The position numbers and the translations under genes are program-made. A stretch of 63,829 nucleotides of DNA, the filler included, from Reclinomonas americana ATCC 50394 (Eukaryota): assembly GCA_048213135.1 (NCBI GenBank). It is 17 parts of 17 records of this genome, joined end to end, with 100 filler letters (N's around TTAATTAATTAA, not from the genome) between each part and the next. Parts side by side here need not be neighbours in the genome. Positions count along the whole stretch, not along the records: positions 21,554 to 27,555 come from AFZH01020680.1; positions 27,656 to 33,604 come from AFZH01020681.1; 15 more parts are not named here. One strand, 5' to 3'. The first letter of the stretch is position 1. Every line of letters starts with the position of its first letter. Shown here piece after piece: positions 6,127-60,559 of this stretch. The notes beneath the pieces were generated by a model. The model was given only the letters and a program-made list of their open reading frames with translations, was not told the DNA's origin and made no database searches.

Positions 6127-6226
6127 NNNNNNNNNNNNNNNNNNNNNNNNNNNNNNNNNNNNNNNNNNNNTTAATTAATTAANNNNNNNNNNNNNNNNNN
6201 NNNNNNNNNNNNNNNNNNNNNNNNNN
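6127..6226. other. Artificial contig spacer (N44-TTAATTAATTAA-N44), first of 16
   Basis: Identical 100-nt six-frame-stop linkers also start at 9040, 11122, 15682, 21454, 27556, 33605, 37063, 38479, 42242, 44196, 46960, 52254, 55251, 60345 and 61960. Several genes continue across them, so the contigs are ordered. Confidence 0.98.
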
Positions 6227-10809: not shown

Positions 10810-11443
10810 TCACAGACCAAGCAGTGCCAGCGCACCACCTACATCGTCCCCCTCGCCACCCTCACCGCCTTCGCCTCCACCCGCCACGTCCCCGTCGAGA
10901 AGGTCAGCGGCGTGCGGCACAGCGGCCGCCACGGGGAAGCCGCGTGGGAAGTCACGCATGGCGGTTTCCATGTCGTCCACCAAGCGGAAGTAGTCGTCGA
11001 CGGTTTGCGCCTGACCGCACCGAGCGAGCAGTGGTGGGTAGCGCGGGAATCTGTGGATGGGGGGAGAGAGAGAGAGAGAGAGAGAGGAGGAGGAGGAGAG
11101 AGAGAGAGAGGAGGACGGACGNNNNNNNNNNNNNNNNNNNNNNNNNNNNNNNNNNNNNNNNNNNNTTAATTAATTAANNNNNNNNNNNNNNNNNNNNNNN
11201 NNNNNNNNNNNNNNNNNNNNNGGAGAAAGAGAAGGGAGAGAGTGTGAGAGAGAGAGAGAGAGGAAAGGGAGGGGAAGAGCCACAAGATGCATGCGGAAGT
11301 GCATGAGTGTAGAAGAGAGAGGGAGAACGATGTGAGCAAGTGAGTGTGTGTGTGAGAGAGTGAGACAGAGAGGGAGGAAGACAAGAGGTGTCATGCGAGA
11401 TGAATGTGATAGGCAGGCAGAGGGAGTTGCACTCTTTCTCTTC

Positions 11444-12646: not shown

Positions 12647-20194
<7,548 letters not shown>

Positions 20195-20468: not shown

Positions 20469-23400
20469 CTACAACGAAGCGCTCAACTTGCGGGCATCCA
20501 GCGGCACAAAGTCCTTGGGCTCCGGTCCTGCTCAGCACACAAACGACAAAGGTGAGCAGATTGATCTTGATTCCGTACCCCGCCCTTCCCAATCGCACCA
20601 TTGTAGAGCGCCGAGGGCCGAATGAGTCGGTTGTTGGCGCGCTGCTCAATGATGTGCGAGGCCCAGCCGGAGGTGCGGGCCACCACAAACACCGGCGTGA
20701 AGAGATTGGTGGGGATGCCTGCTCCAGCGAGTCAGTAACTCATTCGCCCACAGAAACAAGCGCTCTGCACTCACCGCACTGGTGGTAGGCACTGGCGCAG
20801 TAAAAGTCCAGGTTGGGGAACATCTTCTTCTCGCGGCTCATCACGTGCTCGATGCGCTCGGAGACAGCGTAGAGAGCCGGGCAAGCGCCCTGCTCGGGGC
20901 GGCGCTCCGCCAGCTGGCGCGAGCAGTCCTTGATGATGGTGGTGCGCGGGTCCGAGGTCTTGTAGACGCGATGGCCAAAGCCCATGATCAGCTCCCTCTT
21001 GCGCAGCATTTCCATTACCTGTGACAAGACAGACATCAACACCACATGGGCGAGAGGTGCGGTGGAAGGTGAGAGAGTATTACGCAACGGCAGCCTCGGC
21101 CTCCTCGGCATTCGCAAAGCGCGACACGAGGTGCATGGCGGCCTCGTTGGCGCCGCCGTGCAGCGGGCCGCGAAGGGTGCCAATGGCGGCAGTGATGGAC
21201 GAGTAAAAGTCGGAGAGGGTGGAGGCGGTGACGCGTGCCGAGAAGGTGGATGCTGGGCGGTCAGGGGTATGAGCGGGAGGGGGGATAGGGGGGAGACGGG
21301 AGAGTGCAACTCACCGGCGAATTCGTGCTCAGCGTAGAGAATCAGAGAAATGTCCACCACGCGGACGCAGAGGGCGTCGGGCTGAGCGTCGGCGTGGACA
21401 GTGAGTGAGTGGGGATTGGGGGGGGGGGGGGGGTAGGGGAGGGAGGAGGAGAGNNNNNNNNNNNNNNNNNNNNNNNNNNNNNNNNNNNNNNNNNNNNTTA
21501 ATTAATTAANNNNNNNNNNNNNNNNNNNNNNNNNNNNNNNNNNNNNNNNNNNNAAGCGATGGGGAAGGAGTAGGAGGAGTGACATGGGGGAAGAAAAACG
21601 GACACAAAAGGGAGAGGCTAGGTGAAGACATCGCAGTAGAGCGAAGGCGCACTAATCAACGGAGCAACATGCTGGGAGCGCAGGATAACAGCCGAGACAT
21701 GAATGCCAGTCTCGCCATTTGGAAGACATTGCGTTGGCTCTCACAGCGTTGGCAAGTCGATTTTCGACTGCGGACAGTTCACCCATCACTCACGTAACAC
21801 ACAGAGGGGATGAACGGAAGCAAGTCGAGAAACAAAAGAGAGAGCGGAGCCAAAGAAGACGCTGAGAAAACAGAGAGTCGAGGCGAGAATGGTGGAGGAC
21901 GAAGAAGCTCCCAAAGGAAACGTGCAACGCGAGAAACCGCAATGTTTTTCTCTTCTTCCTTCCCCCTCTTCCTTTTCCCCTCTCTCTCTCTCGGTGAACA
22001 AACCTCCTCGGTTGCTGGCAAGCGCTTCAACAGCTTCATGAAATTGGTAGCAATTGTGTCCTTCTCGTCAGTGCGCGTCTCGATGCGCACACCCGACTCG
22101 TGGTAGTGATGCCAGTACAGCATGATCTGCAACAACAATGTGCTGCATTTTCAGCGACAAAGCAGATGGCAAGCGTAGGCGATGGAGCAGAACTCACCGG
22201 ACCGAAGCGCGCCATCAGACTGTCAGCCACATCGTACTGCGAAGGGAGCGCTGAGAGATAAGCCGGAAAAATATGCAGCGCACTGGCAAATAGAAACTCA
22301 CACACCTGCGACAGACCCTCGTCACTCGACACCAAACGATCAGCATTTTCTGGCTCCGAGCAACCGAGGAACGACGCCGCCGTGCGCAACACGTCCTGAG
22401 AAAGCAAGTAATGAGTGAAAGCAGGAGGGACGGCATGCGAGTGAGTCTCGGTGACTTGGATCAATGGAGAACTCAGGCATCGATTCTCTTCCCACCATCT
22501 ACAACAGTCTCACTGCAAAGCCCTCTGCGACCGCACATTCCCAGCTGGCAACTGTCAAGTACTTACAGCAGGCATCAATTCTCTGCGCAGCCACAGCCGC
22601 ATTCCACAACAAATCTCATTCTCGGTGGTGTGTTGCAAAGACTCGCTCACGCATTCTGCTCAAACCCAGCGACCACCAATCCCATCTCCCAGCTTGCAAA
22701 AGTATTGAGAAGACAGTCGGCAGGGACTCTCTCTGCTTCTTACTGCTTCTGTCTCACAATAGCCCCAGTGATCGTGTCTATCCTCGCTTGCACAACTGGC
22801 ACACTCACTTCAATCACCGATTCGACAGCTCACTCACTTCTCCGCCTCACTGCCAGCATACTTCTGCTAGGCGATGCTCTACAACTCCTGTTGCATCATT
22901 CTCGCTGTGCAGGACTGCACATCCCATCTCCCAACTTGTATCAGTGTAACGCAGAATGCAAGCATGCTTACTCCTTACTCCGCCGGAGCGACAATATACT
23001 CGTAACTTGCAACTCTCATGCTGCATCAGTCTCACTGCCCTCCCGGACCACACGTCACGCTTGCACCACTGTCACGATTGAAGACAGCATGGATTTCTCC
23101 GCAGCTCACTGACCACTCCGCCCAGTGCGACTCACTTCCTACTCGCATCTATGACTCCACATATCGATCCTCTGACACATCAGGAAGCCGAATTCTGCAG
23201 AGCCCCACTGACAACAACCCTATCTCCCAGCTTTCAACAGTGTGTCACGCTGAATGCAAGCACAGACTCTTCTCCCACTACTCTTCATACAGTTCCTGCA
23301 GCTGCATCAGCCTCACTTATCTCCCCGCGCACCCCCTCAACTCCGCGCCCTCTCTCCTTCCCCTTCCATTACGCACCATCGGATGCGACGCCGCCGGCAA

Positions 23401-24940: not shown

Positions 24941-25785
24941 ATGTCAACCTTCGCTTCTGAGAACGCCGCGCACACCGCGCAAGTCTTTGCCAGTTTCGGT
25001 GGTGGACTGCCAGCACCATTCAACGATTTCATTGCCGACAGTGGAGAACTTGTCGGCAAGATCGGCGTTGCCGTCGGCAGTGAGGTGTGTACGCGACAAC
25101 TTGCACGTCCATCTGTCTCTCTCTCTGTCTCCGCTTCGTCACTGACCCTTGTACATGCAGGTTCCCGACTTCACCGTGACAAAACTCGACGGATCTCCCG
25201 TCCGTCTCGGCGACCTGACGGCCTCGGGCCCGGTGGTGGTCGTATTCTTCCGCGGCTCCTGGTGCCCGTGGTGCAACTTCCACTTGAAGGCGTTGCGTCG
25301 CGCGTTGCCCGAGCTGCGCGCCGCCAATGCCACACTGCTGCTCGTGTCGCCCGAGAGCCCCGACCGTCAGAGCGCCTGGGAAGAGGCACGTACCTGAACT
25401 TCACCACCACCACATGATACTGATCGCGCGCTGTGCTGACTCCCTCCTCTCCCCCCACTTTGTAAATGTACAGTTGTCAGCCGCTGATCACGACGACGGT
25501 GTGATTGTCGCACAAGATCCGCAGCTGCAAGTCGCCAAGCAGCTCAACATTGTGGTCAACGTCCGCGAGGACCTGAAGCAGGTGTATTTGACAGCGTTGC
25601 ATTTGGACCTGACCACGATCAACGCCAGTGCTGCTGGTGCAAGTGACTGGGCTCTGCCAGTTCCGGGTGCACTGGTCATTGATCAGCGCCGGGTGGCGCG
25701 CCATGTTGAGTTTTTCGGCGACTTCACCACGCGTGTCGATCCTGCCGGTATTGTGGCCGCACTCCAGGCTCTGCAAGCCTTGTAA
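24941..25785 (+). CDS. AhpC/TSA-family peroxiredoxin-like protein (3 exons: 24941-25084, 25161-about 25385, about 25474-25785)
   Basis: VPDFTV...GPVVVVFFRGSWCPWCN (CxxC) and WALPVPGALVIDQ...DFTTRVDP match the mostly bacterial PRX-like subfamily. Confidence 0.85.
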
Positions 25786-25946: not shown

Positions 25947-28900
25947 TCACCTTCTTCCCTTATGCGGCGGAACCACAAATGTGTGGAATCCATATCCTTC
26001 GCCCGCATCCACGCCCTCCACTCGCACGCGGCACACGGGACACTCGCCGCTCTTGTTCGCCAGCCGCTCCGCACACTCCCGACACAACACCTGGTGCATG
26101 CACGGACGCAGTCGCGTCTCGCGCAGTCCGTCGCACACCATGCACGCTCGCCGGCACGACAACACCGTGAGATCGCTCAACTCGCTCGCCAGCTGCTGAG
26201 CGGTCGGACGACGTGCTGGTCGACCGTCCAGGCATCTGCAGATTGACCATGCATGTCAGTCAGCGTGTCTCCTCTCAACTCTCTTGGAGACACACAAACC
26301 TCAGTGCCAATCGCACAATCCTCTCGCACACAGGAGCCGGCCACGGTCGACCGACACCACCGTCGGCCAGTTCCACAGCGGCTTTGAGCAGTGCTTCGCC
26401 ATCGTCGCCATCCTCTATCTCCTCCAGTGCCTCCACTCGTCGATGCACCTCCTCAATCGGCAGGCCGCTGAACACTTGCAGCAGGACGAGACCGAGAGAG
26501 AACACATCCGAACTCAGTCGTAGCTGTCCGTGCATGGCCTTGGGATCGGCGTACTTGGGGTCGCCAGCAAAGTGCACTGACAGATGCGTCTGTGGCACGA
26601 GGAGGGGAAGGGATGAGGGGAGGGGAAGCGAGAGACAGAGCAAGATCTAGAAAACGTTACTCACCCCCTCAGTGCGGAACCAGTGCGCCACTCCCAGGTC
26701 CGAGATGTACGCCATTCCACTGTGGTTGAACAGAATGTTGGCTGGCTTCAGGTCGCGGTGGATCACTGAGAGAGAGAGAGAGAGAGCAAGTGAGTGGAAC
26801 GAAATGAGCAGAGAGTGCAGAGCAGACACGCGTACCATTCTGCGCATCCAAACAAGCGCACAAAATAGACAGGCGTCAGTTAACAACGAGAAGATGAAGC
26901 AAACACACATGCCACATCTCTCACTCACATGCCTGCATCATCAGCAAGAACAATGTGAGTCCGATAGCATGAAGAAGGAAACAAAAAACAACGAGACATG
27001 TGACACGCAACTTGTGCAGGGAGGCAACCGCCTCGGCACATCGCAGCATGCACGTCATTCGTGCCTCAATCGACATGGCTGGCAGTCCACGCTCCGCCCA
27101 CTGCAGCAGTCGGTGCTCCAAGTTGTGCTCACTGCGAATTACGAGGGAGTGAGAACACAAAAAGAAATCTCAGGAAAGACCATGAGATGCGGTGGTGGTC
27201 ATTGATCAAGACAGAGAGACAGAGCAAGACACGTCCAGAATAAATTAGCAGAAAGCACTCTCTCTCTCCCTCTCTCCCCTACGTTTGTCTCGATCGGTCA
27301 CTCTGCATCACACTTCCACCTGCTCATGATCACTCTTCTTTCTTTCTTACTTGCTTTCTCTCTCGCTCACACTCCTTTCTCGCTCCGTTTGTCTCAACAA
27401 TCTCTCAGTTAATGTCAGTCACTCTGCGAAACACCTCCCGTTGCTCAATGCAATATCTTTCTTTCTGTTTTACTCTCTCTCTCTCTCTGCGCTTCCACTA
27501 GTTGTTCTCGTTGCTCTTAACAGTCACTGCTGATACCATCTGTACTCACTCCCTCNNNNNNNNNNNNNNNNNNNNNNNNNNNNNNNNNNNNNNNNNNNNT
27601 TAATTAATTAANNNNNNNNNNNNNNNNNNNNNNNNNNNNNNNNNNNNNNNNNNNNTTGCCGAGAGCGCACACCGTAAGATCACATACATGCTCCCGCCCA
27701 CGCAAATACCCCCTCCTCTCTCTCTCTCTCCCTCTGTTTCCCTCACACTCACCTCATCGCCTCGAGCACCACGCATCGCTTGCCGTCGTCCGACTCCGCA
27801 AATCCAATCAGTGGCACAACACCAGCCACACTCACCGCCTTCAGCTTCTCCAACTGACATGCAACCCGAGTGATGGTGAGTGGAACACATTTTCTCTTTC
27901 TCTCTTCGTCACCATCCCCCACTCTCACCTCATTGGAGAACGACTCGATGCACCACGGCAACGCGCTGTCAAACACCTTGATCGCCACACTCTGTCCGGC
28001 CCACTGCCCACAAAACACCTGACCCTGTCCGCCGGCGCCGCCCAGTCGCTCTGCAAAGTTGCTGCTCATCGACACCACTTGCTCCCACGAAAACGCCGTC
28101 AATGGCGCTGCATTCATCGTCATCAAACAAACAAAGTGAGTTTCCCATCATCATTCTTTCCCCTTCACCTCCTCCTGCTGCCTAACGCACCTCGGTGGGT
28201 GAGATCGCGCTGCACGGCAGCCAGGTCGGCCTCGAGTCGCTGAGCTCTGTCACGCTCGCGCTGTCGCTGCTCATCCACTCGATCCAGTGCCTCCTGCAGC
28301 GCGGTACGCGCGATTTCGTGCTGCTGGAGAGAGGCAGCGTGCTGAGCAATAATGCTCTCGTTGGCCTGCACGCGACATTCCCACTCGCCCATCCTCGCTT
28401 GCTGCTCGTCCAGCTGTCGCTGCAATTCCGCCATTTGTTGCTGCACCCGCTGCACAGATTCCTCCTGTTGTCGCACTCGCTCCTGCCACTCGCTTGCTCG
28501 CTGTCGCCACTCCTCCTGCTCTCGGTGTGCCGCCTCGACCTCCTGCCGCAGCTGCGCGGCGGTATGCTCGTAGTGCTGCACACGCGCCTGCCACTCGCTT
28601 GCCCGCTGCCTTTGTTCCACGAGCTCCTGTTGCACCGCTTCGGGCGGGGGCAGAGCCTGTCCTTGGCCGCCTGCCTGGCCGATGGGGCCACCATTCTCGA
28701 GCGGAGAGTGCGAGGAGGCGGCGACGGATGTTCCGGATGCCTGCGGAAATGCATGCCAGATAAGCGATCGTAAGGCAGAGAAGGCTGGGGTGGACGCCAA
28801 CGAAACAGATGTTCCAGTGGACGATTGAACAGCATCGACAGGCACTGCGACCACAAACACATAAAAAGAGTGAGCAAGGAACAGCCTGAGGTGACAAGAC

Positions 28901-30528
28901 ATGCACTCACCGGCAGAAGAGCCCGACTGGTCCTGTTGCAGCTGTGCCTTCTTCTTCTTCTTCTTCTTGTTCTTCTTCTTCTTCTTCGTTGCCTCTTGGT
29001 CGTGCGGCACTCCTTCCTTGCGCCGGGCTTCCTCAAGAGCTGCACGAACATCTTCCAGCTGCTTCCGATCACTATGTTGTGTCGAGTATCGAGCGCCTAG
29101 CAGCCGCTCCCGCCTGCTCACGATGTGCTCCATCAAGCGCACGGCTTCCTCCAAGTTCTCAATGCCACCGAGTTGGAAGAGATGAAGCGCATGGCACTGG
29201 CTGTCGCGCAGCGTAGTTGGATGATCATCGCCAAGGTCCTCTTGTTGGTGTGGGAGAAGTTCTCGACCGAGTCGAACTGCCTCTTCGTAGTTCCCGCACG
29301 ACCCAAAAGCGAGAGCAAGCTCGTACATAGCCTGCGCCAAAACGACAGGATTCGATACGACCTCGTATGCTCGGTTGAACTCATCCAGTGTCTCGGCAAG
29401 CAGTGCAGCGGCTTCCTCCGCTCGGCCAATCTGGAACATGGCGCGACCAAGTCGTGCCGACACGGAGAGGCTAAGGGAGCTGACAGTGTCTATCTGCTCC
29501 AGCGTATCCTCAAGCAGATCAATGGCCTCCGTCACACTGCTGTCGCCACCGACGGCGAGAAGAAACTCGCTGAGTTCGAATGTGTTGTCAAGTTCATCAG
29601 CACTATAGTCGTCGTCGTAGCCGTTGTCGAGAAACTCACGCTCAGCTGCCACAAACTCGCGCATCATGTCAACTGCCGCCTGGCTGTCGCCGCTGCAGTG
29701 GAGTACACAGGCGAGATCGTGCATCGTATACAGTGTCTCATTGTCGTCTTCTGGCAACACGCGTTTCTGACGCTGCAGAGTGTCACGAAACAGAACAACG
29801 GCTTCGTCGTACCGACCAAGCTCACGCAGTGCGTCACCGAGCCCCCACGCCACCATCAGCGTGGTACTATGGTCCACACCAAGGTGCTTCTGCATTCCTT
29901 GAAGGGCACGCTCAAAGGTAGTCACAGCCTCAGTCAAATTTGCAGTGCCACCGACTTCGACGAGAACTATGGCAAGGCTGCGCAAGGTTTCGCACCTGTC
30001 GACTGCACCCAACACGTGCTTGTCTCGTCGCAGCAAGTCGCGGAGAACTAGGACTGCCTCGTCGTACATGTGGGCTCCCTGCAGCGCCGTCGAGAACCAA
30101 TCCAACACCTTCACCAGAGACACATCGCTCTCTGGCAGAAGGCGTTTCATCTTCTCTGCTGTGGCTCGCAGCAACGCGATACCCTTATTCGGTCGACGGG
30201 TTTCATACAGTAATTTGCCCTGCACGCCCGACGTCAACATCGTCAACACGTGGTCGTCGCCGTACACCCGGCTGTAACGCTCCGACAGCTCCTCAAGCAC
30301 TCGAAGAGAGTGCCCGCGCGCATCTGACAACGCCAGACTCCGCAGCTGCTTCTGTGCAGACGAAATCGTCCACTTTTTGTTGTCGGGGCCGAACAGCTCA
30401 GTAAAGTCGCGCACGCACTCGGCAAAGAGCGACGCCGCCTCGTCGTGCTCTTCGTCTTTCTCGGCCTTCTCTGCCGCAGCGTATCGCTCAGTTGCCGTCG
30501 CCAGTCGCTGACGTTTTCCAGAATCCAT
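25947..30528 (-). CDS. TPR-repeat / coiled-coil / RLK-Pelle(IRAK)-like kinase / RING protein, copy 1
   Basis: About 42-aa TPR_12-type repeats (LGxDHxxTL) and a Q/E-rich coiled coil. The kinase reads FSWEQV..NF.ERLGGAGGQGQVF, VAIK, HRDLKPANIL, DLG, SDVFSLG, WP...LALRC...RRP. The C-terminal RING reads CMVC..PCMH..CREC...CPVC. Confidence 0.85.
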
Positions 30529-30948
30529 AATGTTGGCGTGCGTGAGCGGAAGACAGTATGTGTGTGTGTAAGAGGGTATGTGGTGTGTGTGTGTGTGTGT
30601 GCAAGCGCGTGTGTGTCTTGTGCGGTGGCGGCAATGTCTTCTCTATACTCCTTGTGTGATGACGCAAGCACCCTTCGATGTCTGTGGGACATCGGCGAGA
30701 ATGACTTGGAACACACCGCACATGCCCTTCTGATTCCAAGCAACAGCGCAGTGCGTGCTGTAATGATCACCGACTCGATGGAGATCGCAGCGCAACATAG
30801 ACAAGGAACAAGGAGAGCCAAGTAATGTCGACGTCGGCGAAGCCACTTGCACGGTCTCCGGGAGTCTGCCTGCGTGTCTGCGAACCCACATCCTCTTCCG
30901 CGACTCCATCGCGTCGTACAATACAATAAAAATACAACAATTCATTCT

Positions 30949-33604
30949 TCATCTCCGCGGCGCCGGCGGAGCCACATACGTGTGGAACCCGTATCCCTCG
31001 CCAGCATCCACACCCTCCACTCGCACGCGGCACACGGGACACTCGCCGCTCTTGCTTGCCAGTCGCTCTGCGCACTCCCGACACAACACCTGGTGCATGC
31101 ACGGACGCAGTCGCGTCTCGCGCAGTCCGTCGCACACCATGCACGCCCGCCTACACGACAACACCGTGAGATCACTCAACTCACTCGCCAGCTGCTGAGC
31201 GGTCGGACGGCGTGCTGGTCGACCATCCAGGCATCTGCAGATTGACCATGCATGTCAGTCAGCGTGTCTCCTCTCAACTCTCCTGGAGACACACAAACCT
31301 CAGTGCCAATCGCACAATCCGCTCGCACACGGGAGCCGGCCACGGTCGACCAACGCCACCGTCGGCCAGATTCGCAGCAGCATTGAGCAGTGCTTCGCCA
31401 CCCGCATCGTCCATCTCCTCCAACGCCTCCACTCGTCGATGCACCTCCTCAATCGGTAGACCGCTGAACACTTGCAGCAGGACGAGACCGAGCGAGAACA
31501 CATCCGAACTCGGACGCAGCTGTCCGTGCATGGCCTTGGGATCGGCGTACTTGGGGTCGCCAGCAAAGTGCACTGACAGGTGCGTCTGTGGCACGAAAAA
31601 GGAGAGGGAACTGTGGATTGAGGAAAGGGGAAGGGAGTGACAGGGCAGGAAAGTGTCACTCACCCCCTCGGTGCGGAACCAGTGCGCCACTCCCAGGTCC
31701 GAGATGTACGCCATTCCACTGTGATTGAACAGAATGTTGGCTGGCTTCAGGTCGCGGTGGATCACTGAGAGAGAGTGAGAGAAAGTGAGTGAGTGGAACG
31801 AAATGAGCAGAGAGTGCAGAGCAGACACGCGTACCATTCTGTGGAACCAAACAAGCGCACAGAAAGGCACGAGTTAGTTACCAAGGAGAAATATTACGCA
31901 AACGCATACCTCGTATACTCTCTCTCACTCACATGCCTGCATCATCAGGAGGCACAAAGTGAGTCCGATAGCATGAAGAAGGAAACAACAAACAACCAGG
32001 CATGCGACACACAACTTGTGGAGGGAGGCAACAGCCTCGGCACATCGCAGCATGCACGTCATTCGTGCCTCTATCGACATGGCTGGCAGTCCACGATCCA
32101 CCCACTGCAGCAGTCTGTGCTCCAAGTTGTGTTCACTGTAAATCACGAGAGAGTGAGTGCACATGAATCGACGAATCCCCCCTTCCGGGAGAAAAATAAT
32201 GAGGTGTGGCGGTGGCTATCGGTCAAGACAGAGAGACAGAACAAGTCACATCCAGAATAAACTAGCAGAGAGCACTCTCTCTCTCTCTCACTCTCCTACG
32301 TTTGTCTCGATCAGTCTCTGCATCACACTTCCACCAGCTCACTTTTCTTTCTCTGTCTCTCTCTCGCACTCTTTTCTCTCGTTCTCTCTCTCTCTCAGTC
32401 TCTCGATCTCTCTCTTTCTTTCTCTCTCCCTCCCTCCCTCTCTCTCTCTCTGTTTTCCTTTCTCTCTCTACGTATTCTCAATCAACCTCTCCGCGTCACA
32501 CGTCCACCTTCTCACTGCAATCTCTCTCTCTCCCGCTTCCTCCATCTCCCGCTCTCCCTATCCCTCTCTGTTTCCCTTTCTCTCTCTGTTTCCCTTACAC
32601 ATGCATGCTCCCGCCCAGCAAATCCCCCCTCTCCCTCTCTGTTTCCCTCACACTCACCTCATCGCCTCGAGCACCACACATCGCTTGCCGTCGTCCGACT
32701 CCGCGAACCCAATCAGTGGCACAACACCAGCCACGCTCACCGCCTTGAGCTTCTCCAACTGACATGCAAGCATGAAGAGAGTGAGATGCACACATTTTCT
32801 CTTTCTCTCTTCGTCACCATCCACCACTCTCACCTCATTGGAGAACGACTCGATGCACCACGGCAACGCGCTGTCAAACACCTTGATCGCCACACTCTGT
32901 CCGGCCCACTGCCCGCAGAACACCTGGCCCTGTCCGCCGGCGCCGCCCAGTCGCTCCGCAAAGTTGCTGCTCATCGACACCACTTGCTCCCACGAAAACG
33001 CCGTCAATGGCGCTGCATTCATCATCATCAAACAAACAAAGTGAGTTTCCCATTATCATCGAACTTCCCCTTCCCCTTCTGCCTCATGCACCTCGGTGGG
33101 TGAGATCACGCTGCACGGCGGCCAGATTAGCCTCGAGTCGCTGAGCTCGGTCTCGCTCGCGCTGTCGCTGCTCGTCCACACGATCCAGCGCCTCCTGCAG
33201 CGCAGTGCGCGCGATTTCGTGCTGCTGGAGCGTGGCAGCGTGCTGAGCAATATTGCTCTCGTTGACTTGTGCACGCTGCTGCCACTCGCTCATCCTAGCT
33301 CGCTGCTCGTCCAGCTGTCGCTGCAAGTCCGCCATTTGTTGCTGCACTCGCTGCACAGTCTCCACCTTTTCACGCTTCGCCGCCTCGACCTTCTGCCGCA
33401 TCTGAGCAGTGGTCTGTTCGAGGTCCTGCACACGTGCTTGGCATTCTATTGCCCGCTGTCGCTGTTCCTCAAGCTCCTGCTGCAGTGCACTGGGCTGCGG
33501 CAGAACTTGTCCTTTGCCGGCCTGCTCGTGTGGAGCGCGGGAGGAGGAGAAGGCGGCGGCGACTACGACAACTGGAGGGGAAGATGAACCAGATGCCTGC
33601 GGGG
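30949..33604 (-). CDS. Coiled-coil / kinase / RING protein, tandem copy 2 (5' end lost in gap)
   Basis: Exons and intron positions are near-identical to copy 1 across the kinase and RING. Confidence 0.85.
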
Positions 33605-33704
33605 NNNNNNNNNNNNNNNNNNNNNNNNNNNNNNNNNNNNNNNNNNNNTTAATTAATTAANNNNNNNNNNNNNNNNNNNNNNNNNNNNNNNNNNNNNNNN
33701 NNNN

Positions 33705-34030
33705 GTTTTCCACTCGCTGTTGCTTCGTTTTCCGCTCGCTGCTGCTTCGTTTTCCACTCGCTGCTGCTTCGTTTTCCACTCGCTGCTGCTTTGTTTTCCG
33801 CTCGCTGCTGCTTCGTTTTCCGCTCGCTGCTGCTTCGTTTTCCACTCGCTGTTGCTTCGTTTTCCACTCGCTGCTGCTTTCGTTTCCACTCGCTGCTGCT
33901 TGTTTTCCACTCGCTGCTGCTTCGTTTTCCACTCGCTGTGCTCCTTGCTCTCGCTGTGCTCCTTGCTCTCGCTGTGCTCCTTGCTCCCGCTGTGCTCCTT
34001 GCTCCCGCTGTGCTCCTTGCTCTCGCTTCA
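33705..34030. repeat. Compound minisatellite: about 22-nt unit (TTCGTTTTCCACTCGCTGCTGC) followed by an 18-nt unit (TGTGCTCCTTGCTCTCGC)
   Basis: Direct tandem copies with no unique spacers. Confidence 0.9.
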
Positions 34031-34280
34031 CTCCATTCCACGCGCTGTGCTGCCTTCTCTCATTGTGCTCTCAATCTCTCTCTCCCTTTCCCTCCCTTTC
34101 CCTCACCCTTTCCTTCTCCCTTCCTTTCCCTCTCCCTCCTCCCCCTCTTCTCCCTCTTCTCCCTCTTTTCCCTCTTCTCCCTCTTCTCCCTCTTCTCTCT
34201 CTTCTCCCTCCCTTCCCCCTCATCTCCCCCTCATCTCCCCCTCTTCTCCCCCTCTCACCCTCCCTTCCCTTTCCCCGCAG

Positions 34281-37200
34281 GCCTCACCCTCCCCTCCATG
34301 ATGCTCCCGGCATCCATCCGCGCCCGTCTGAGTGCTCGTGGCGGTGCACCGTCCCCATCCAGCTCGGCCAGTCGACCCGGCACGGCAACTGGTGTGGTCT
34401 TCTACTCTCCTTCACTCTACGCCCTTACCACTGTTTCTGACAATTGGGATCCCGTGGCAGGATCACGATTCCTGGCGCAACACGAGGCGAACCCGGATCA
34501 CTCGCCGAGCGAGTCGGAGAGTGATGGTCACGGCGCCGCAGCGACTGCACGAGATCGACCTGGCTCCGCTCCCACGCACTCGTCGGCATCCAACGCCGCA
34601 CGCACCGCCTTGCGTTTGCTGCGTGGCGCCGGTCAGCCGCAGCAACCGGGCGACAGTCCTCGCAGCGGCACGCCAGCAAGTCCTCGCCCCAACAGCTCCA
34701 CCTCGATGGCCTCTGCGAGACGTGCACGAGCCGCAGCGGCGGTGAGTTTGTGGCAAAGCGTGGTGCTTTTTTGATGCCTCTTTCTTATCTTGCGAGCAGG
34801 ACGGAAGCGACGACAGTGATGACAGTCTTGACCGAGCTGTTGCTCCGCGACTGTCGACCCCGTTGGAGCAGTATCGGCGGCGACTTGGCGGGTGAGTCAA
34901 CTGCCTTCGTTTGATAAAGGTGTGGCGTCATGTCTCACCATCCACTGCAGGAGTGATGTGGCAGCCGACGCTGAAGCTCGTGAGTGCTTGTGGCAATCCT
35001 CACTCTCTATGTTCTTGCTTTTCTCATTCTTCTCTTTCGCAGGCCGTCAACGCAACCTGGTTCCGCGAGCCTATGCTGTGTATCCTGGCCTGCCGGGTCG
35101 CGGTGGATTCCTGCAGAGTTCGATTGTGTTCGACCTCTCCATGTTTGAGCGGCAACCAGGCACGCGACAGGTCGACAGTTCTCGACGACCTCCAAGTTGA
35201 GTAACATGGGTCTCATTCCCTTCTCAGTTTGTGATCTCAACTCCTCTTCCTCCACGCCAGTGCCTCTGGATGAGCCACATGTGAACGGCGATGCACATGC
35301 CCTTCCGCACGATGAAAAGGAGGAGGAATTCGTCGTGCCCGGCGGTCTGCAGCGCATCGTGCACAGCAATGTGGAGGAGACCGAGCGACACTTGCAGTGG
35401 ATGTGTGCGCCGAATACTGTCCCCTTGGTGATGGCGCTGGCGGCCACGTTCCGCACGCCCGTCATGATGCACAATATTCACCTGTTTGCGCCAGCCTCGG
35501 GTTCGTGCTGACGAGTTGCGAATCCAAGATCATGGGTGGTGGTGACTCACGTGTGCGAGTGAGCAGGACTGACTCCACGCGATGTGGTCTTTGGCGGACT
35601 GGTGGCCTCGGTGTGCCCGGGTAACGTGCACGGCGGACGCATCGGCTCACTGAGGCTACGTTACGAGCCGACGGATCTGGTCGGCGGCGAGCACGTTGTG
35701 GATTTGCGGGACGGCAGGTGCGCTCACTTTGGTCTGTCGCGCTTTCTTCTCGTTCGCTGATCACCTCGCCCGCAGCAATGTGTTCGAGCCACTTCGCGTG
35801 CTGCTGGTGCCACTGCTGTTTGCCAATGCCGCGGCTGATGTGGTGGTGATTGGCAACACGATTACACCACGCGGACCGAATGTCGAGGCCGTGTATGGAG
35901 TTGCGGCTGAATCACATGCACTCGTGCGCTGCTCTCCTGGTTGCTTACTGGTGGATGCAGATTCTGTTCCACATGCTGCGGTGCACGGGCGCGGAGCTAA
36001 CGCTCGACATTGAGAAGCGGTGAGTGGCGACTGTGGTGGCAGGTGAATGCACACCCTGCGCTTATGCTTCCGCTCGCAGATCATTCCCACCGCATGCCAC
36101 TGGTCGTATCCGTGTGAAGCTTGGCGAGCCAGCGCGCGCATTGCGTGCTTTCAAGTACCACGTGTTTGGCGACGTGATGCGTCTCACTGGCAAGGTTCTG
36201 GTCGGCGGCCAAGTACCCTTCAAGGTCTGTCTTGGCGATTGATAGCTTTCGTGGAGCGCTGCGGGGCTCATAGTGTGACGAACAGGTGGGTCGCGAGGTC
36301 TGTCGCGCCATTCAAGAGATCTTCCAGCAAGATGAGGATTTGCGGGAGATTCCGCTGGATGTGAGTGTGCACAAGTACCCAAAGGAGCTCAACGATGGAA
36401 CTGGATGTGCTGTGTTGTTGCGTGGCGCGAGAAGGGGAAGGGAGGGAGGGTGGGGGCGAGAAGGGATGTGCTCATGTGGTGTGGTGTGCAGTCTGCTGGG
36501 TGAGACGACGACGGATGTGGCGTTCTTCTCGCAGGCGTTGCGAACGGAGCAAGGTTTGTGGCGCTGCAGAGAGGGAGGAGAGGAGGGACGGCAAGGGAAG
36601 AGTGATAGGAAGAGAGGAGGGAGAGAGGAGGGAGAGAGGAGGGAGAGAAGAGGGAGAGAGAAGAGGAGAGACAGAAAGAGGCTAATTGTGCAGTGGTGAG
36701 AGAGAGAGAAAGAGAGGGAGGGCAAGAGAGGAAGGAGACGCACACCATCCCGCAGCAGAGACAGACGTAAGAGGGAAAAAGAGGAAGAGGCAGAAGAGGA
36801 GAGAAGGGAGAGACGGAAATCAAGGAGAGACGAAGACGTGCAGTGCTGAGAGAGAAGGAGTGGAAGAGATGAGTGTGTGAGAGAGAGAGAGAGATGAAGG
36901 AGACCAAGCCTTACGTCATCCTGCAGCAGAATAGAGAAAAGAGGAAGGGACAGAAGAGGAGAGCAGGGAGAGACGTAATTCAAGGAGAGACGAAGCCGTG
37001 CAATGCTGAGAGAGAAAGACTGGAAGAGATGAGTGAGAGAGAGAGATGAAGGAGACCATGCCNNNNNNNNNNNNNNNNNNNNNNNNNNNNNNNNNNNNNN
37101 NNNNNNTTAATTAATTAANNNNNNNNNNNNNNNNNNNNNNNNNNNNNNNNNNNNNNNNNNNNCGGAAGAGGGAAAAGAGGAAGAGGCAGAAGAGGAGAGA

Positions 37201-38311: not shown

Positions 38312-38707
38312 GGTGGGGAGTGAATTAACTACGGCAACTACTTTATCCAAGCAGCATGATGTGGGTGAGCAATCGGAACTGATGAGAAGACTGGCGCTTA
38401 TGCAAGAGAAAGCACTAGGTAGATAGCAGAGGTCAAATGGAAGCTGGGGAAACAGAGGGAGAGGGCAAAGACACTGCANNNNNNNNNNNNNNNNNNNNNN
38501 NNNNNNNNNNNNNNNNNNNNNNTTAATTAATTAANNNNNNNNNNNNNNNNNNNNNNNNNNNNNNNNNNNNNNNNNNNNGCCTTTTCTGATCAGAGGACGT
38601 CGGTGGCTTCTAACGACTGATGTGAGTGGCACTAAATGTGCGCGCTACTGACTGCAGCCCGTCGATTGTGGGCGGCGCAAATACTGTACTCAGCTCAAAA
38701 CCGACAT

Positions 38708-40997: not shown

Positions 40998-43900
40998 TCA
41001 AGGCGCCGCGGCCACAGCCGACACCGTGCCCGCCACCACGGCATGCCGCGAGCCAGAACCCGACGCACCACCCGATCCACCCTCGTCGTGCTGCTGAATC
41101 ACGAGCATGACTGGACTCGCGACTCGCACCACCCTGCTCGAGTCGAGCATCACCAACTCGATGCCGTCCAACGGGTGCATGCCGGGCGACACGGCCAGCA
41201 GCGTCAGCAGGCAGTCGATGTAGCCGCCGGCCGCCACGACACCAACATTCTGTTGGGGAGGGAAAGGGTGGTTGAGCAAGGAAATTGGAAGAAGTGTGCG
41301 TCTCTCTCTGTGAGTGAATGAGTGACTCTCTTCTTCTCTCCACTACGAACAGCGCAGGTCGCCGGCGAGAAGCGCTTCCGCATGTGGGTGCCGGAGACGG
41401 GCTACCACATGAACACCTTCCGCGGCACGTCTCGCAGATCCACCACGCCGAAGACCTCTCTCTCTCTCTTTGTGTGAGAGAGTGAGTGTGCATCACAACT
41501 CTCACCAATGCAGCATTCTCATACGCGCGGATCTCTGGGAACGACGAGTCGTTCTTGCGCAGCATTAACCGGTGGCTGATGGCGGTGCGGTTGATCACGC
41601 GCAGACGCGCGGTGAATGGTCGCTCCACCTCCGCCTCCGCCACATCCGCATAGCCGAGGAACTCGACGGCCAAATCCACGGGTGCCACGGCCTGGCGGGC
41701 GAGGGAGAGAGTAAGAAAAGGGAAGTGGAAGGGAGATGGTGGTGGAACGCACCCGATACTGAATGGGGGTGACGAGGATGCGGCCAGTGTCGAAGAATGA
41801 CGAGCGCCACTCGATGCGCAGGTCGCCGAGGACCACAGTGCCGGCGGATGTGCGGCCCTGCAATATGGGAAGAAAAGGGGAAGGGGATCGACAGTGAGGG
41901 GGAGGATAAGGGGGCAGAGAGAGGGCAAGGGGGAGAAATGAGGAAAAACATGGAGAGAGAGAGAGTGAGAGAGAGAGAGAATGAGGGGAAGGCGGAGGAG
42001 AAATGGGAGAAGGAGGAGGAGAAATGGGAGAAGGAGGAGAAGGGAGAAGAGACAGAGATACAGAGAGACAGAGAGATAGAGAGACAGAGAGACAAAGACT
42101 GAGACAGGGACAAAGAGAGGGAGGAAGACAGAGAGAGACTGAGAGACAGAACAGAGACAGAGAGACAGAGGAAGAGACAGAGACAGCGAGAGAGAAGCAG
42201 AAACACATGACAGACTCAGAAACAGAGATAGAGACAGAGACNNNNNNNNNNNNNNNNNNNNNNNNNNNNNNNNNNNNNNNNNNNNTTAATTAATTAANNN
42301 NNNNNNNNNNNNNNNNNNNNNNNNNNNNNNNNNNNNNNNNNGGGAGAGAGGGAGGGTCAGAGGCAGAGAATAAGAAGGGGAAGAGACAGAGGTAGAGGTA
42401 GGTCAGCACGAGAGACAGAAACAGACAGAGAGAGAGAGAGAGAAAGGCAGCGACACAACGACAGTGATTCAGTCAGAGACAGAGAGACAAACACACACAG
42501 AGAGAGAGAGAGAGAGAGAGCGTGGAACATACCGGAACCGAGGCATCCTTCAGCGACCGATCGATGAATTCGTACACGTAGCTGCGAGCCTCGTCCTTGC
42601 CCATGATCTTCTCGGCGGCACTGTGGTGGGCATGTGGTAAGCAACGAGAACAACACATGCATCAGACAGTAACAAGAAAGAGTGCGGGACAAGAGACAGC
42701 CACCAAGTCAGGAGACCAAACAACAACTCCGAGGCACTCACTTTTCCTCATTGTGCGACCTCAGTTCGAACTCGGGACTGGCAAAGAACTGCAGCGACTC
42801 GAGATACAAGGCCTGGCCCGACACGTTTTGCAGATCCACCGTTAGGTACACGTTGCCCTGTGCCAGAAGAGGGTCAGACGCGAACAAACAGCACATGCGA
42901 CAATGCCGCTCACCTTGCCCAGATTAACCAACGTGTTGAACTGCAGCGCGTGTTCGACGGTGAACTTGAAGGAGCGCTCGTATCGTCTGGCCAGGTGGGA
43001 GGCGTCGTTGAATGACAGCGCGCATTTCATGCTGGGAGGCGATGAGCATGCAGACAGTGACAAAAGGCGATGAGCAAGCGGGACGCAACACATAGTCGCC
43101 GGCCTCGTTGAGGGGGAACTCAATGGGCACGCTGATGGTGTGGCCGGAGAGGAGGGACACGGGGTCGGTGGCGGGCACGGTGGACAGCTTTTTGGAGGGG
43201 GATTCGATTTGAAGCTGCGCACAGGGGGAAGGGTGGGGGGAAGGGAAAAGGGGAAAGGGGAAAGGGGAAAGGGCGAGAAGGGAGGAGAAAGAGACAAGGC
43301 ATAAAGAGAGGCATCAGCCGAGCGAATGCAGCGAGGAAGGGAAAAGAGACAAGGGGTGGAACACAATCGGCAAGGCATAATGAGAGAGAGAGGCACGAGC
43401 GAGTGCAGGGAGGAAGGGAAAAGGGACAAAGGGGAGAGCACAATCAGCAAGGCATAAAGAGAGAGACAGAGAGGCACGAGCGAATGCAGGGAGAAAGGGA
43501 AAAGGGACAAGGGGTGGAATACAATCGGCAAAGCATTATGAGAGAGAGGCATTAGCAAGAGCGAGAGCAGAGGAAAAGGAGAGAATGCAAGCATGACTCA
43601 AAATCAACTCAGCAAACGAACGTACCACCACCGTAAAGGCGCTGACATCAAAGTTGACCAGGTTTTGGAACGAGAACATGGCCTTGAAGATCTCGCCGAC
43701 AAACAGCTTTCTGCAAGTGGGCAATGAGAACAGAGGAAAGAGAGAGCTGACACGTGGCTGCCTGTTGTTATCGAGTAGCTTCTTGCCACGCGCTCGACTC
43801 TTTTCTTCTCCTCCCGCTCATCTAGCATGCGTCTATTTCCATGGATCTGTGCTCTTCTTCCTTGCGTGCTCGTGTTGCCCAACGAGACTAATTGCCACAC

Positions 43901-44299
43901 TGGTAGCTTATTTGCATCTTTCGCTCCCTCCCTCTTCCCTCCTCTCAGCATGCGTCTATTTCCATGGATCTCTGTGCTCTTCTGCCTTACGTGCTCGTGT
44001 TGCCCACCGATTCTAATTGCCACGCTGGTAATTTATTTGCATCTTTCGCTCTCCCTCCCTCTTCCCTCCTCTCGCTCGACCAGCATGCGTCTGTTATTAA
44101 CCCCCTGGCTCTACTGCCTTGCGCCAAGCTGGACGCCTTTCTCCTCTCGCTCGTCAAGCTGGCAGGTTATTGCATCTCTCCCTCCCTCTTCCCTGNNNNN
44201 NNNNNNNNNNNNNNNNNNNNNNNNNNNNNNNNNNNNNNNTTAATTAATTAANNNNNNNNNNNNNNNNNNNNNNNNNNNNNNNNNNNNNNNNNNNNACTA

Positions 44300-44847: not shown

Positions 44848-45110
44848 GTGTGTGAGAGAAAGAGAGAGTGAGAGTGAGAGAGAGTGTGCGCGAGAGACAA
44901 GAGAGTAAGAGTGACAGAGACAAGAGATTGCATTCCTGTTGTCACTAACTCTTCACTCACTCTCACTCTGTCTCTGTTGCATGTATGCGACACACACGCA
45001 CACACACACACACAAAGCTCAAGAGGACTTGTGAATGTGCAAGTGAAAGAGAATACATACGGACTCACTCACACATGCACACACAGACACCTCTTTCTTC
45101 TTCTTCCTGT

Positions 45111-45141
<31 letters not shown>

Positions 45142-52124: not shown

Positions 52125-52593
52125 GAGGAGGAGAGAGAGAGAGAGCGACCACAACAACTACGACGACGTACCGTCGTCGTTACGGTAACCGGACCGGAAC
52201 GGGACGGTAGTTACGGTTAACGGTAACGACGAACGAAAGGAAACGTCGTACGGNNNNNNNNNNNNNNNNNNNNNNNNNNNNNNNNNNNNNNNNNNNNTTA
52301 ATTAATTAANNNNNNNNNNNNNNNNNNNNNNNNNNNNNNNNNNNNNNNNNNNNAGGGAGAGAGAGAGAGATGCACCACACAATCAGCGACGAAAGACGTC
52401 TGCAGCTGAAGTAATCCATTGTGGACAAGACGCACAACATAGACATGATTTCATAGACACCCTTTGCCCTTCGAGAACCCTTGTGCACATGTTCGGGATG
52501 GTTCGGCAAAGGCTGCAAAAATTTAACGAGCGCTGAAAACCACCAAAGCCCTGCCCTTTCCTCCGTATTCCACTTCTCTCCTCCTCCTCACAC

Positions 52594-60262: not shown

Positions 60263-60559
60263 ATGAGCACTGCTGGATGGAGTAGGTAGTTGTGCAGTGC
60301 AAGACTACCTTCAATAACAAACAAATAATGCTGCTCCCCCCCCCNNNNNNNNNNNNNNNNNNNNNNNNNNNNNNNNNNNNNNNNNNNNTTAATTAATTAA
60401 NNNNNNNNNNNNNNNNNNNNNNNNNNNNNNNNNNNNNNNNNNNNCGTCGGTCGGACGTAGGTGGTGTGGGGACGAGAGAGAGAGAGAGAGAGAGGAAAAC
60501 AAAGAAGGATTGAGAAAGGTGCAGAAGAGCAGAGAGAGAATACAATCGTGGCTGCCAAC

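Follow-up and report, generated by a model that had tools for sequence, protein, structure and literature searches.

Innate immune signalling includes two-protein kinase/E3 pairs such as IRAK with Pellino or TRAF6 and, in plants, RLK/RLCK kinases with PUB ligases. The closest studied analogue of the genes described here is the plant PUB-VI/RLCK-IXb group (Arabidopsis PUB32-35, PUB50-53 and PUB61; tomato and N. benthamiana RLCK-IXb). According to a preprint, PUB33 acts as a kinase and as an E3 ligase, with regulation by autophosphorylation, it homomerises and also heteromerises with a paralogue via its long helical domain, and proteins of the group are bound by pathogen effectors, one of which PUB33 ubiquitinates (bioRxiv 10.64898/2026.02.10.704836). 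The same source states the link between RLCKs and PUB ligases, and gives no clear immune signalling defect for pub32/pub33/pub50 mutants (bioRxiv 10.64898/2026.02.10.704836).

We analyzed 63,829 nt from Reclinomonas americana ATCC 50394 (the window), in which fixed linkers connect 17 small contigs. Two neighbouring tandem genes lie on its minus strand, copy 1 at 25947-30528 and copy 2 at 30949-33604, with only 420 nt separating the stop of copy 2 from the ATG of copy 1. A preliminary description had placed both at these positions, of which 25947 is the final base of the copy 1 stop codon and 33604 the last base ahead of an assembly gap. The host DNA is that of an intron-rich eukaryote. Copy 1 is predicted to have eight exons, with GT-AG boundaries at 7/7 introns and a single open frame of 1118 aa, encoding in order about ten TPR units, a low-complexity linker, a coiled coil, a Ser/Thr kinase and a C-terminal C3HC4 RING (Table 1). 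The ORF at 28168-30528 (787 codons) is open throughout and contains both the TPR array and the coiled coil, with intron 1 either spliced or retained, and a single contig (27656-33604) holds the TPR array, the linker and the coiled coil as well as the two exons with which the kinase begins. One 100-nt linker (27556-27655) sits within copy 1 intron 4; neither this, nor the contig structure, nor the second gap (33605-33704) that removes the 5´ end of copy 2, had been remarked on before. The flanks of that intron are collinear with the intact, microsatellite-rich intron of copy 2 (32136-32657), the exon 4/5 junction spanning the linker aligns gap-free to relatives, and the splice junctions of the two genes align gap-free to intron-free database relatives. 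The single-chain TPR-coiled coil-kinase-RING protein first proposed for copy 1 is upheld by the common frame of its TPR array and coiled coil and by junctions common to both copies.

Table 1. Features of the two kinase-RING genes and the adjoining assembly gap (window positions).
Feature	Position	Strand	Evidence or remark
Copy 1 exon 1, residues 1-539, ATG 30526-30528	28911..30528	-	gene model, Pfam
Copy 1 TPR units, residues 43-505	about 29014-30402	-	Pfam, 42-residue self-similarity
Copy 1 poly-Lys tract after TPR units, encoded by (CTT)13	28948-28987	-	TRF
Copy 1 intron 1, 66 nt, GT-AG, in frame	28845..28910	-	gene model
Copy 1 exon 2: low-complexity linker and coiled coil	28191..28844	-	gene model
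Copy 1 coiled coil, residues 608-757, 150 aa	28192-28641	-	composition, periodicity
Copy 1 exon 3: juxtakinase motif, glycine loop, VAIK lysine	27929..28107	-	gene model, alignment
Copy 1 exon 4: remaining kinase N-lobe	27753..27853	-	gene model, alignment
Copy 1 intron 4, holds 100-nt linker	27132..27752	-	collinearity with copy 2
Copy 1 exon 5: kinase hinge to alpha-E	27007..27131	-	gene model, alignment
Copy 1 exon 6: catalytic loop HRDLKPAN and DLG at DFG position	26665..26765	-	Pfam Pkinase
Copy 1 exon 7: activation segment to alpha-I	26300..26589	-	alignment; IRAK4 best solved match
Copy 1 exon 8: kinase subdomain XI, RING, tail ending in T-F-V motif, stop	25947..26235	-	Pfam, zinc ligands
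Copy 1 C3HC4 RING	26031-26144	-	zf-C3HC4_3
Copy 1 stop codon	25947-25949	-	gene model
Copy 2 exon 2, partial: linker and coiled coil	33092..33604	-	gene model; frame open to contig end
Copy 2 exon 3	33012-32834	-	gene model; kinase/RING region 30949..33012
Copy 2 exon 4	32758-32658	-	gene model
Copy 2 exon 5	32135-32011	-	gene model
Copy 2 exon 6	31764-31664	-	gene model
Copy 2 exon 7	31585-31299	-	gene model
Copy 2 exon 8	31234-30949	-	gene model; zf-C3HC4_3 1.5e-10
Scaffold linker N44-TTAATTAATTAA-N44	33605..33704	.	conceals copy 2 5´ end
Minisatellites opening next contig: 22 bp x 10.9 copies and 18 bp x 7.7 copies	33705..34070	.	TRF

Exon 1 matched TPR families only in Pfam, with no USP domain; TPR_12 scored E 3.8e-27 (94.7 bits, with the gathering cut-off at 30.1), and E 2.4e-19 was obtained for TPR_10 (69.1 bits, cut-off 27.5). 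Self-similarity peaked at a lag of 42 residues, at a value about equal to the top maximum of 200 shuffles. The best-matching solved structures are kinesin light chain TPRs (E 5e-8 and weaker). A Podospora TPR-like repeat protein (4y6c/4y6w), which we take to derive from an NLR, is also among the best solved matches. The coiled coil is real: its 150 residues include no Pro, one Gly and 97 residues that are E, Q, R or A, and its hydrophobic residues recur most strongly with a period of 3.5 residues (power 3.26, versus at most 0.33 at seven other periods). In copy 1 it holds three copies of an R-x-x-E-W-x-x-R-V-Q unit. We also noted sub-threshold matches of this segment to SMC/Rad50/JetC coiled coils.

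The 33-aa exon carrying HRD matched Pkinase at E 2.5e-7, and both copies have the glycine loop, the VAIK Lys, the alpha-C Glu, HRD, the Asn and D(L)G. A Lys replaces the APE glutamate and DLG replaces DFG, so regulation may be atypical. The N-lobe exons gave no significant solved match (best E 0.07), and the best solved match to C-lobe exon 7 was IRAK4 (1.4e-7), followed by structures that include SymRK, IRAK1, ScRIPK, PBL2, BIK1 and BRI1. Chains of Myt1 and ULK4 came after SymRK but ahead of IRAK1. For a profile of the whole family, the closest solved structures (ranks 1-52) were RLK/RLCK/IRAK chains. In a tree whose references were two plant RLKs and a mixed set of TKL and bacterial kinases, the window kinases fell, on a long branch (1.92), into a starred clade (100/98) with 16/17 kinase-RING kinases and both plant RLKs, with the 10 ankyrin-TKL/RIPK-like kinases and the 10 bacterial ones placed elsewhere. 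The family HMM scored the window kinase at 161-165 bits, below a plant RLK at 249. Judged by these sequence comparisons, the kinase is closest to the RLK/RLCK/IRAK type (TKL group), in keeping with the IRAK/RLK-like label it had been given. The last exon matched zf-C3HC4_3 (E 1.7e-10 in copy 1 and 1.5e-10 in copy 2, each scoring 41 bits where the cut-off is 27) and other RING models in Pfam, with no U-box. All eight Cys/His zinc ligands were found by regular-expression search, the RING begins nine residues past the alignable kinase end, and its solved matches were RNF141, MGRN1, MEX3C, cIAP and MYLIP.

Copy 2 was modeled as 529 aa in seven exons, the first one cut by the gap, with the same coiled coil (one 17-aa unit shorter), kinase and RING; all its splice sites and its frame are intact, and junctions and phases are those of copy 1. 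Its frame runs open to the contig edge without an upstream ATG, and since it is still open at 33604, the N-terminus of copy 2 is merely unassembled; because that end lies beyond the contig, the variable N-termini suggested for the family cannot be judged from this pair. The break itself was likely caused by the minisatellites that open the next contig, a contig in which we found no recognisable domain. CT-rich low complexity follows these repeats, reaching ~34262. Between the copies, protein identity is 96.5% in the kinase and 98.3% in the RING (96.8% for both together), versus 81% in the coiled coil and 68% in the linker, which matches the gradient described at the outset. Kinase plus RING gave dN/dS 0.079 over 342 codons (dS 0.20), and the stretch of copy 2 ahead of its first Met is conserved as coding (dN/dS 0.23-0.51). 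Both copies are under purifying selection.

Among 50 RING-exon relatives checked in public protein libraries, 16 are kinase-zf-C3HC4_3 proteins (for example the uncharacterised protist proteins P0053, P0093, P0116, P0162 and P0167). The best RING-exon match is 39% identical, and the kinase-RING relatives among the matches are 32-48% identical. Their annotated N-termini are ankyrin (4/16), WD40 (1/16), UBA, CUE, dynamin-like or none, and TPR_12 was found in none of the 16. As far as the domain assignments go, the kinase-RING core is already known from public libraries, where the coiled coil-kinase-RING module recurs with different N-terminal domains, and the TPR_12-bearing form did not appear in these relatives. 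We read copy 1 as a putative new TPR-bearing variant of this kinase-E3 fusion family. The seven relatives compared over their full length have three features in common with the window genes: a helical or coiled-coil stretch ahead of the kinase, the juxtakinase motif and a [TS][FY] tail. This tail is seen across the 16 kinase-RING relatives, lying exactly 11 residues after the last Cys in 12 of them; the window copies have a small insertion. At least part of the kinase is carried by 29 of the 150 family HMM matches listed, and the Atlas cluster of these relatives has 97 members (Pkinase 100%, zf-C3HC4_3 74%), with Haptophyta the commonest phylum. We found no paper naming the coiled coil-kinase-RING family in the literature.

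On balance, we favor the view that the window genes are tandem paralogues from a protist family of cytosolic, dual-function kinase-RING E3 enzymes, probably with an oligomerising coiled coil and, in copy 1, TPR docking. If PUB33 is a guide, the coiled coil would drive homo- or hetero-oligomerisation, in which the two paralogues might join each other, and this would permit trans-autophosphorylation. Phosphorylation might then balance kinase output against RING-dependent ubiquitination of self or of a bound substrate, with the TPR array acting as the docking or regulatory surface that chooses the partner. The analogy spans a domain swap at each end of the protein, where the plant U-box is matched by a RING and the plant USP domain by a TPR array.

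The preliminary description had preferred single-chain innate immune receptors, in which a diversifying N-terminal sensor, here the TPR array, recognises a molecule from a pathogen and sets off a fixed kinase-RING module. We consider this unlikely, even with the occurrence of the TPR_12/TPR_10 class on many STAND/NLR proteins, TPR-based matches that include NB-ARC-TPR proteins, a sub-threshold FxSxx_TPR match, the tandem arrangement, the ankyrin and WD40 repeats of some relatives and the effector binding of the plant group noted above. No NB-ARC, NACHT or other switch NTPase was present among the 15 Pfam families matching the 787-aa TPR-coiled coil frame at E <= 0.1, nor was an NB-ARC/NACHT NTPase among the Pfam matches on any exon, and the closest solved TPRs belong to cargo adaptors, the kinesin light chains. 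The UBA, CUE and dynamin-like N-termini of other relatives are not sensor types, the plant mutants of the preprint cited point the same way, and the one TPR copy in the window provides no gauge of hypervariability. The receptor label is thus not supported as stated, for want of the NTPase and with a TPR class that kinesin light chains share; any immune role of these genes is speculation.

It is quite improbable that copy 2 is a 5´-truncated duplicate, either a pseudogene or a short isoform starting within the coiled coil, such that the pair is a functional gene plus a relic. The window has no other TPR-like sequence and the contig past the gap has no recognisable domain, as this would predict, but the dN/dS of kinase and RING is far below the ~0.5 expected if one copy had drifted neutrally, the splice sites and frame are intact, and the open, conserved stretch before the first Met continues to the contig edge. 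That the TPR array is a separate gene, or was mis-scaffolded onto a coiled coil-kinase-RING protein, is very hard to credit: the linkers between contigs, one of them inside copy 1, and the lack of TPR_12 in the 16 relatives would fit such an artefact, but the shared contig and frame, the collinear intron flanks, the gap-free exon 4/5 junction and the short distance from the copy 2 stop to the copy 1 ATG speak against it.

A broader conjecture, to which we give little weight, is that accessory domain-coiled coil-RLK/Pelle kinase-RING/U-box might be one ancient eukaryotic module with PUB-VI/RLCK-IXb as its U-box branch. Protists would have exchanged the N-terminal repeat sensor, with TPR in the present case and ankyrin or WD40 in others, to give single-chain, NTPase-free surveillance proteins coupling ligand binding directly to phosphorylation and ubiquitination. 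The two neighbouring genes would represent an expansion at this locus, cross-regulating through their diverged coiled coils as PUB32 does PUB33. Kinase-E3 fusions unite two major signalling modifications in one protein, and the plant kinase-U-box group was only recently shown to be dual-active and targeted by pathogen effectors. A matching design, with a coiled coil, an RLK/Pelle-type kinase, a RING for the U-box and swappable N-termini, exists outside the studied plants and offers a comparative handle on the age of the RLK/Pelle kinase-E3 ligase partnership and on how such modules are re-targeted. The window genes are a well-defined new architecture variant in a poorly assembled genome; were the TPR form to act as a sensor, it would represent a receptor built without an NTPase.

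Compared with known systems, the window genes come nearest to the plant PUB-VI/RLCK-IXb proteins, which have the same order of N-terminal accessory domain, long alpha-helical or coiled-coil domain, RLK/Pelle-type kinase and C-terminal RING/U-box fold. In structural comparison, the Atlas model of P0053, one of the relatives, fits plant kinase-U-box clusters best (TM 0.79 over 362 residues), consistent with the parallel, RING in place of U-box, that had been drawn. The plant helical domain is annotated 'Smc', and the window coiled coil likewise matches SMC models below threshold. The plant U-box corresponds in position to a zinc-binding C3HC4 RING in the window genes, and the plant USP domain to the TPR_12 array of copy 1. 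The protist kinase-zf-C3HC4_3 relatives share an RLK/Pelle-like kinase with a RING within ~25 residues of the kinase end, but at low identity (kinase phmmer at most 83 bits). The best sequence matches to the copy 1 TPR array, bacterial-type Ser/Thr kinase-TPR_12 proteins (P0001-P0003 and others), also combine a kinase with TPR_12/TPR_10 arrays, but in reversed order (kinase N-terminal in 9/9 checked), with a RING in 0/45 Pfam lists and with kinases in a clade separate from the window's. STAND/NLR receptors (fungal and bacterial NB-ARC/NACHT-TPR proteins) carry the same TPR_10/12 repeat class, but at the C-terminus rather than the N-terminus, together with an NTPase that the window genes lack, and their output is a death or effector domain instead of a kinase-RING. 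Finally, the IRAK-Pellino/TRAF6 and RLK/RLCK-PUB pairs join an RLK/Pelle/IRAK kinase to a RING/U-box ligase across two proteins, whereas the window genes, without a death domain, receptor or membrane anchor, combine both domains in one chain.

Splice junctions of the two genes were read on the minus strand and then tested by script. For copy 1, the minus-strand gene at 25947-30528, GT-AG boundaries were found in all seven introns, and the eight exons join into a single open frame of 1118 aa. Exons 3-8 of copy 2, the minus-strand neighbor at 30949-33604, have the same junctions and phases and encode a product of 529 aa, the 5´ end being unassembled. The TPR array and coiled coil of copy 1 lie within one 787-codon open frame (28168-30528), which stays open with or without the in-frame 66-nt intron 1. 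An alternative intron 1 acceptor at 28741 was rejected, since the resulting 170-nt intron would disrupt the frame. The exon 5/6 junction carries a synonymous difference between the copies, with Leu encoded in both. The spliced kinase could be aligned to database relatives over every junction, including exon 4/5, which spans a scaffold gap, indicating that no exon has been lost at this point. In addition, intron 4 of copy 1, which contains the gap, is collinear with the intact, microsatellite-rich 522-nt intron of copy 2. The shared 787-codon frame, the same junctions in copy 2 and the alignment of the kinase over its junctions uphold the proposal in the preliminary description that copy 1 is a single-chain TPR–coiled coil–kinase–RING gene.

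The window comes from the nuclear DNA of an intron-rich eukaryote and has a G+C content of about 50-61%; it is made of 17 contigs of roughly 1.4-6 kb, joined by 16 identical 100-nt linkers, each composed of N44, the six-frame stop spacer TTAATTAATTAA and N44. Features crossing any linker need a collinearity check, and two linkers touch the kinase–RING gene pair. The contig at 27656-33604 holds the whole assembled part of copy 2 together with the TPR array, the coiled coil and the first two kinase exons of copy 1. No match was obtained in an Rfam search. The RAB3GAP2, citrate synthase, TAF and Laminin_G_3 fragments are ordinary neighbors with no relation to the kinase–RING pair. We also noted an AhpC/TSA (peroxiredoxin-type) exon (Pfam E = 1e-16), convergent with copy 1 and ~550 nt past its stop codon. 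A 5-aminolevulinate synthase C-terminal fragment, cut by the gap at 9040, has at most 59% identity to any library protein, with an alphaproteobacterial best named match, and implies a Shemin-pathway enzyme in the organism.

Coordinates of the features in the window
Feature	Position	Strand	Remark
Copy 1 exon 1	30528-28911	-	
Copy 1 exon 2	28844-28191	-	
Copy 1 exon 3	28107-27929	-	
Copy 1 exon 4	27853-27753	-	
Copy 1 exon 5	27131-27007	-	
Copy 1 exon 6	26765-26665	-	
Copy 1 exon 7	26589-26300	-	
Copy 1 exon 8	26235-25947	-	
Copy 1/copy 2 homologous segment	25877-27381 / 30870-32378		86% DNA identity
Copy 1/copy 2 homologous segment	27681-28674 / 32598-33525		83% DNA identity
(CTT)n tract of copy 1	28948-28987		Poly-Lys run
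Longer tract, same trinucleotide	18723-18799		
RAB3GAP2 (N-terminal domain)	1-492	+	Exon fragment
5-aminolevulinate synthase	8285-9037	-	C-terminal fragment
Citrate synthase	20743-21453	-	Exon fragment
AhpC/TSA	25146-25397	+	Exon
TAF histone-fold protein	44949-45593	+	Exon fragment
Laminin_G_3/concanavalin-like protein	61298-61957	-	Exon fragment
Minisatellites (22 bp x 10.9, 18 bp x 7.7), then CT-rich low complexity	33705-34262		Contig start beside copy 2
Linkers touching the gene pair	27556-27655, 33605-33704		
Other linkers	6127-6226, 9040-9139, 11122-11221, 15682-15781, 21454-21553		
Other linkers	37063-37162, 38479-38578, 42242-42341, 44196-44295		
Other linkers	46960-47059, 52254-52353, 55251-55350, 60345-60444, 61960-62059		

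The copy 2 frame is open to the contig end at 33604, with no stop and no upstream ATG, and the next contig begins with 22 bp and 18 bp minisatellites, which probably caused the assembly break. A tblastn search of the whole window with copy 1 revealed no second TPR-like stretch, residues 1-572 matching their own locus only, and no Pfam domain was found in the minus-strand frames upstream of copy 2. The N-terminal part of copy 2 lies outside the assembled sequence and may hold a TPR array, another domain or none.

Pfam analysis identified TPR_12 (E = 3.8e-27) and TPR_10 (E = 2.4e-19) in copy 1 exon 1, Pkinase (E = 2.5e-7) in the 33-aa exon 6 and zf-C3HC4_3 in the last exon (E = 1.7e-10 for copy 1 and 1.5e-10 for copy 2), with no NB-ARC, NACHT, U-box, USP or death domain. 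The TPR array of copy 1 spans residues 43-505 and comprises about ten degenerate 42-residue units, with self-similarity strongest at lag 42. Among solved chains, kinesin light chain TPRs and a Podospora TPR-like repeat protein come nearest, and a search of the Atlas, a resource of modelled protein clusters, gave generic bacterial TPR clusters only. In the linker of copy 1, a (CTT)13 tract codes for poly-Lys; this tract matches a longer one of the same trinucleotide elsewhere in the window. Residues 608-757 have the composition and 3.5-residue periodicity of a textbook coiled coil and include a short unit present in three copies; copy 2 has one 17-aa unit fewer. This region has sub-threshold matches to the coiled coils of SMC, Rad50 and JetC, and PADLOC returned TPR and coiled-coil matches only, all sub-threshold. 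Complex prediction for two chains of copy 1 residues 600-757 gave a score of 0.02 (mark 0.32). The kinase retains the glycine loop, VAIK Lys, alpha-C Glu, HRD and Asn, with DLG in the DFG position and Lys in place of the APE glutamate. All eight ligands are kept in the RING, which is followed by a 27-residue tail.

DNA homology between the copies extends from ~70 nt past the stop codon up to the linker-encoding region, with 90-98% identity in exons 3-8 and 71-87% in introns, except for intron 7 (98%). Nei-Gojobori estimates of dN/dS were lowest for the RING (0.028, dS 0.27, 59 codons) and kinase (0.094, dS 0.18, 283 codons) and higher for the coiled coil (0.20, dS 0.55, 133 codons) and linker (0.51, dS 0.37, 28 codons), bearing out the earlier impression of a conserved kinase and RING behind a more divergent linker and coiled coil. 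These values indicate purifying selection on both copies, such that neither looks like a relic. Partial gene conversion may account for the lower dS in the 3´ half, but the identity profile is mosaic and does not settle this.

We examined the kinase class by structure matches and phylogeny. Among solved structures, the C-lobe exon best matched IRAK4 (1.4e-7), with further matches including SymRK, IRAK1, ScRIPK, PBL2, BIK1, a Pto-type kinase and BRI1; the N-lobe exons had no significant match to solved structures. When a profile of 13 kinase–RING proteins was compared with solved structures, rows 1-52 were RLK/RLCK/IRAK chains, EGFR (row 53) being the first other kinase. In the protein library, plant RLKs scored best after the query itself with the kinase–RING alignment profile; this search was swamped by ankyrin and kinase, and RING was found only in the first query protein itself. 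A tree was built from 41 domains picked from 272 proteins and the two spliced window kinases, the rest being left out: 17 kinase–RING, two plant RLK, ten ankyrin-TKL/RIPK-like, ten bacterial and the two window kinases. The window pair groups with both plant RLKs and all but one of the 17 kinase–RING kinases, in a clade that is starred (100/98), and is sister (80/80) to nine kinase–RING kinases on a long branch (1.92); P0101, a library protein, lies outside the clade (branch 3.04). The proposed RLK/Pelle affinity holds as far as the solved-structure matches and the grouping with plant RLKs and kinase–RING kinases go; strict family membership is tentative on a tree whose references are these two plant RLKs, the ankyrin-TKL/RIPK-like and the bacterial kinases.

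A search with the TPR–coiled coil frame gave 45 matches, all distant TPR_12 proteins, the best-scoring at 27% identity; none of the 45 exceeded 35%, a value whose alignment covered just 16% of the query, and none carried a RING. The kinase was N-terminal in all nine kinase-bearing matches checked, an order opposite to that of copy 1. The last exon (95 aa, comprising the kinase end and RING), searched against 1.84 billion representatives, gave 301 matches at E <= 1e-3. The best had 58 bits and 39% identity, indicating that the library contains neither the source genome nor anything closely related to it. Pfam was run on 50 of the 51 proteins of at least 350 aa among the matches listed, and kinase plus zf-C3HC4_3 was found in 16 of these 50. 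Accessory N-terminal domains of the 16 were ankyrin (four), WD40, UBA, CUE and dynamin-like (one each) or none (seven), the remaining protein having C-terminal armadillo repeats; TPR_12 was present in 0/16. A family HMM detected the kinase, at least in part, in 29 of 150 last-exon matches listed. The window proteins and the kinase–RING relatives share a pre-kinase helical or coiled-coil stretch and a juxtakinase motif, and in all of them the kinase is followed shortly by a RING and then by a [TS][FY] tail at the C-terminus. The taxa of these relatives rest on a single Atlas cluster, that around P0053 (97 members; Pkinase 100%, zf-C3HC4_3 74%), in which Haptophyta is the commonest phylum (known for 41 members). 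P0053, the closest kinase–RING relative, has hydrophobic residues at about 15-31 that by eye resemble a membrane anchor; if they are one, some family members would be membrane-tethered.

An architecture unlike that of the window, TPR_1/TPR_2 plus zf-C3HC4_3 without a kinase, was seen in 12 of the 50 checked RING-exon relatives (P0065, P0069, P0071, P0073, P0083, P0099, P0122, P0141, P0142, P0146, P0178 and P0184). Our literature search found no description or naming of a protist kinase–RING family, and the word RING is absent from the accessible part of a Phytophthora kinome paper. As to whether the architecture is already common, the kinase–RING core is present in public libraries, but the TPR_12-bearing form was absent among the 45 TPR-based and 50 RING-based matches checked. 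Judged from sequence, what is new is this TPR_12-bearing variant.

These data also bear on the initial suggestion that the copies are immune receptors with sensor N-termini, which we consider unlikely. The TPR_10/12 class is frequent on STAND proteins but is equally that of cargo adaptors, and the switch NTPase is absent. While N-termini differ among family members, in several relatives they are ubiquitin-binding or dynamin-like. The genes stand in tandem and the plant analogues are tied to pathogen effectors, but a single TPR copy is visible in the window. We favor the reading that the copies are protist kinase–E3 counterparts of plant kinase–U-box proteins.

Among systems that have been studied, plant PUB-VI/RLCK-IXb comes nearest. 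According to the available part of one report, these proteins combine USP, a long alpha-helical region, an RLCK kinase and a U-box; PUB33 has both kinase and E3 ligase activity, regulated by autophosphorylation, and associates with itself, its activity is damped in heteromers with the paralogue PUB32, a bacterial effector is ubiquitinated by PUB33, and mutants have no clear defect in immune signalling (bioRxiv 10.64898/2026.02.10.704836). In the accessible portion of a second, effector binding by a tomato member is assigned to its helical 'Smc' domain, and two N. benthamiana members are negative regulators of immunity (PMC12803775).

No signal or membrane segment was seen by eye in copy 1, whose product is predicted to be cytosolic, with an intact kinase and RING behind the coiled coil. 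If PUB33 and RING E3s in general are a guide, the protein would form oligomers through its coiled coil, possibly mixing both paralogues, whose coiled coils have diverged. Oligomerization would allow trans-autophosphorylation and bring the RINGs together, phosphorylation would set ligase versus kinase output, and the TPR array would be a dock for a partner or substrate. Dimeric RINGs of the IAP/MDM2 type use an aromatic C-terminal tail, and the conserved tail behind the window RINGs appears compatible with one of this type. For the Atlas model of P0053, the clusters giving the best superposition were those of plant kinase–U-box proteins, with a TM of 0.79 over 362 of 398 residues.
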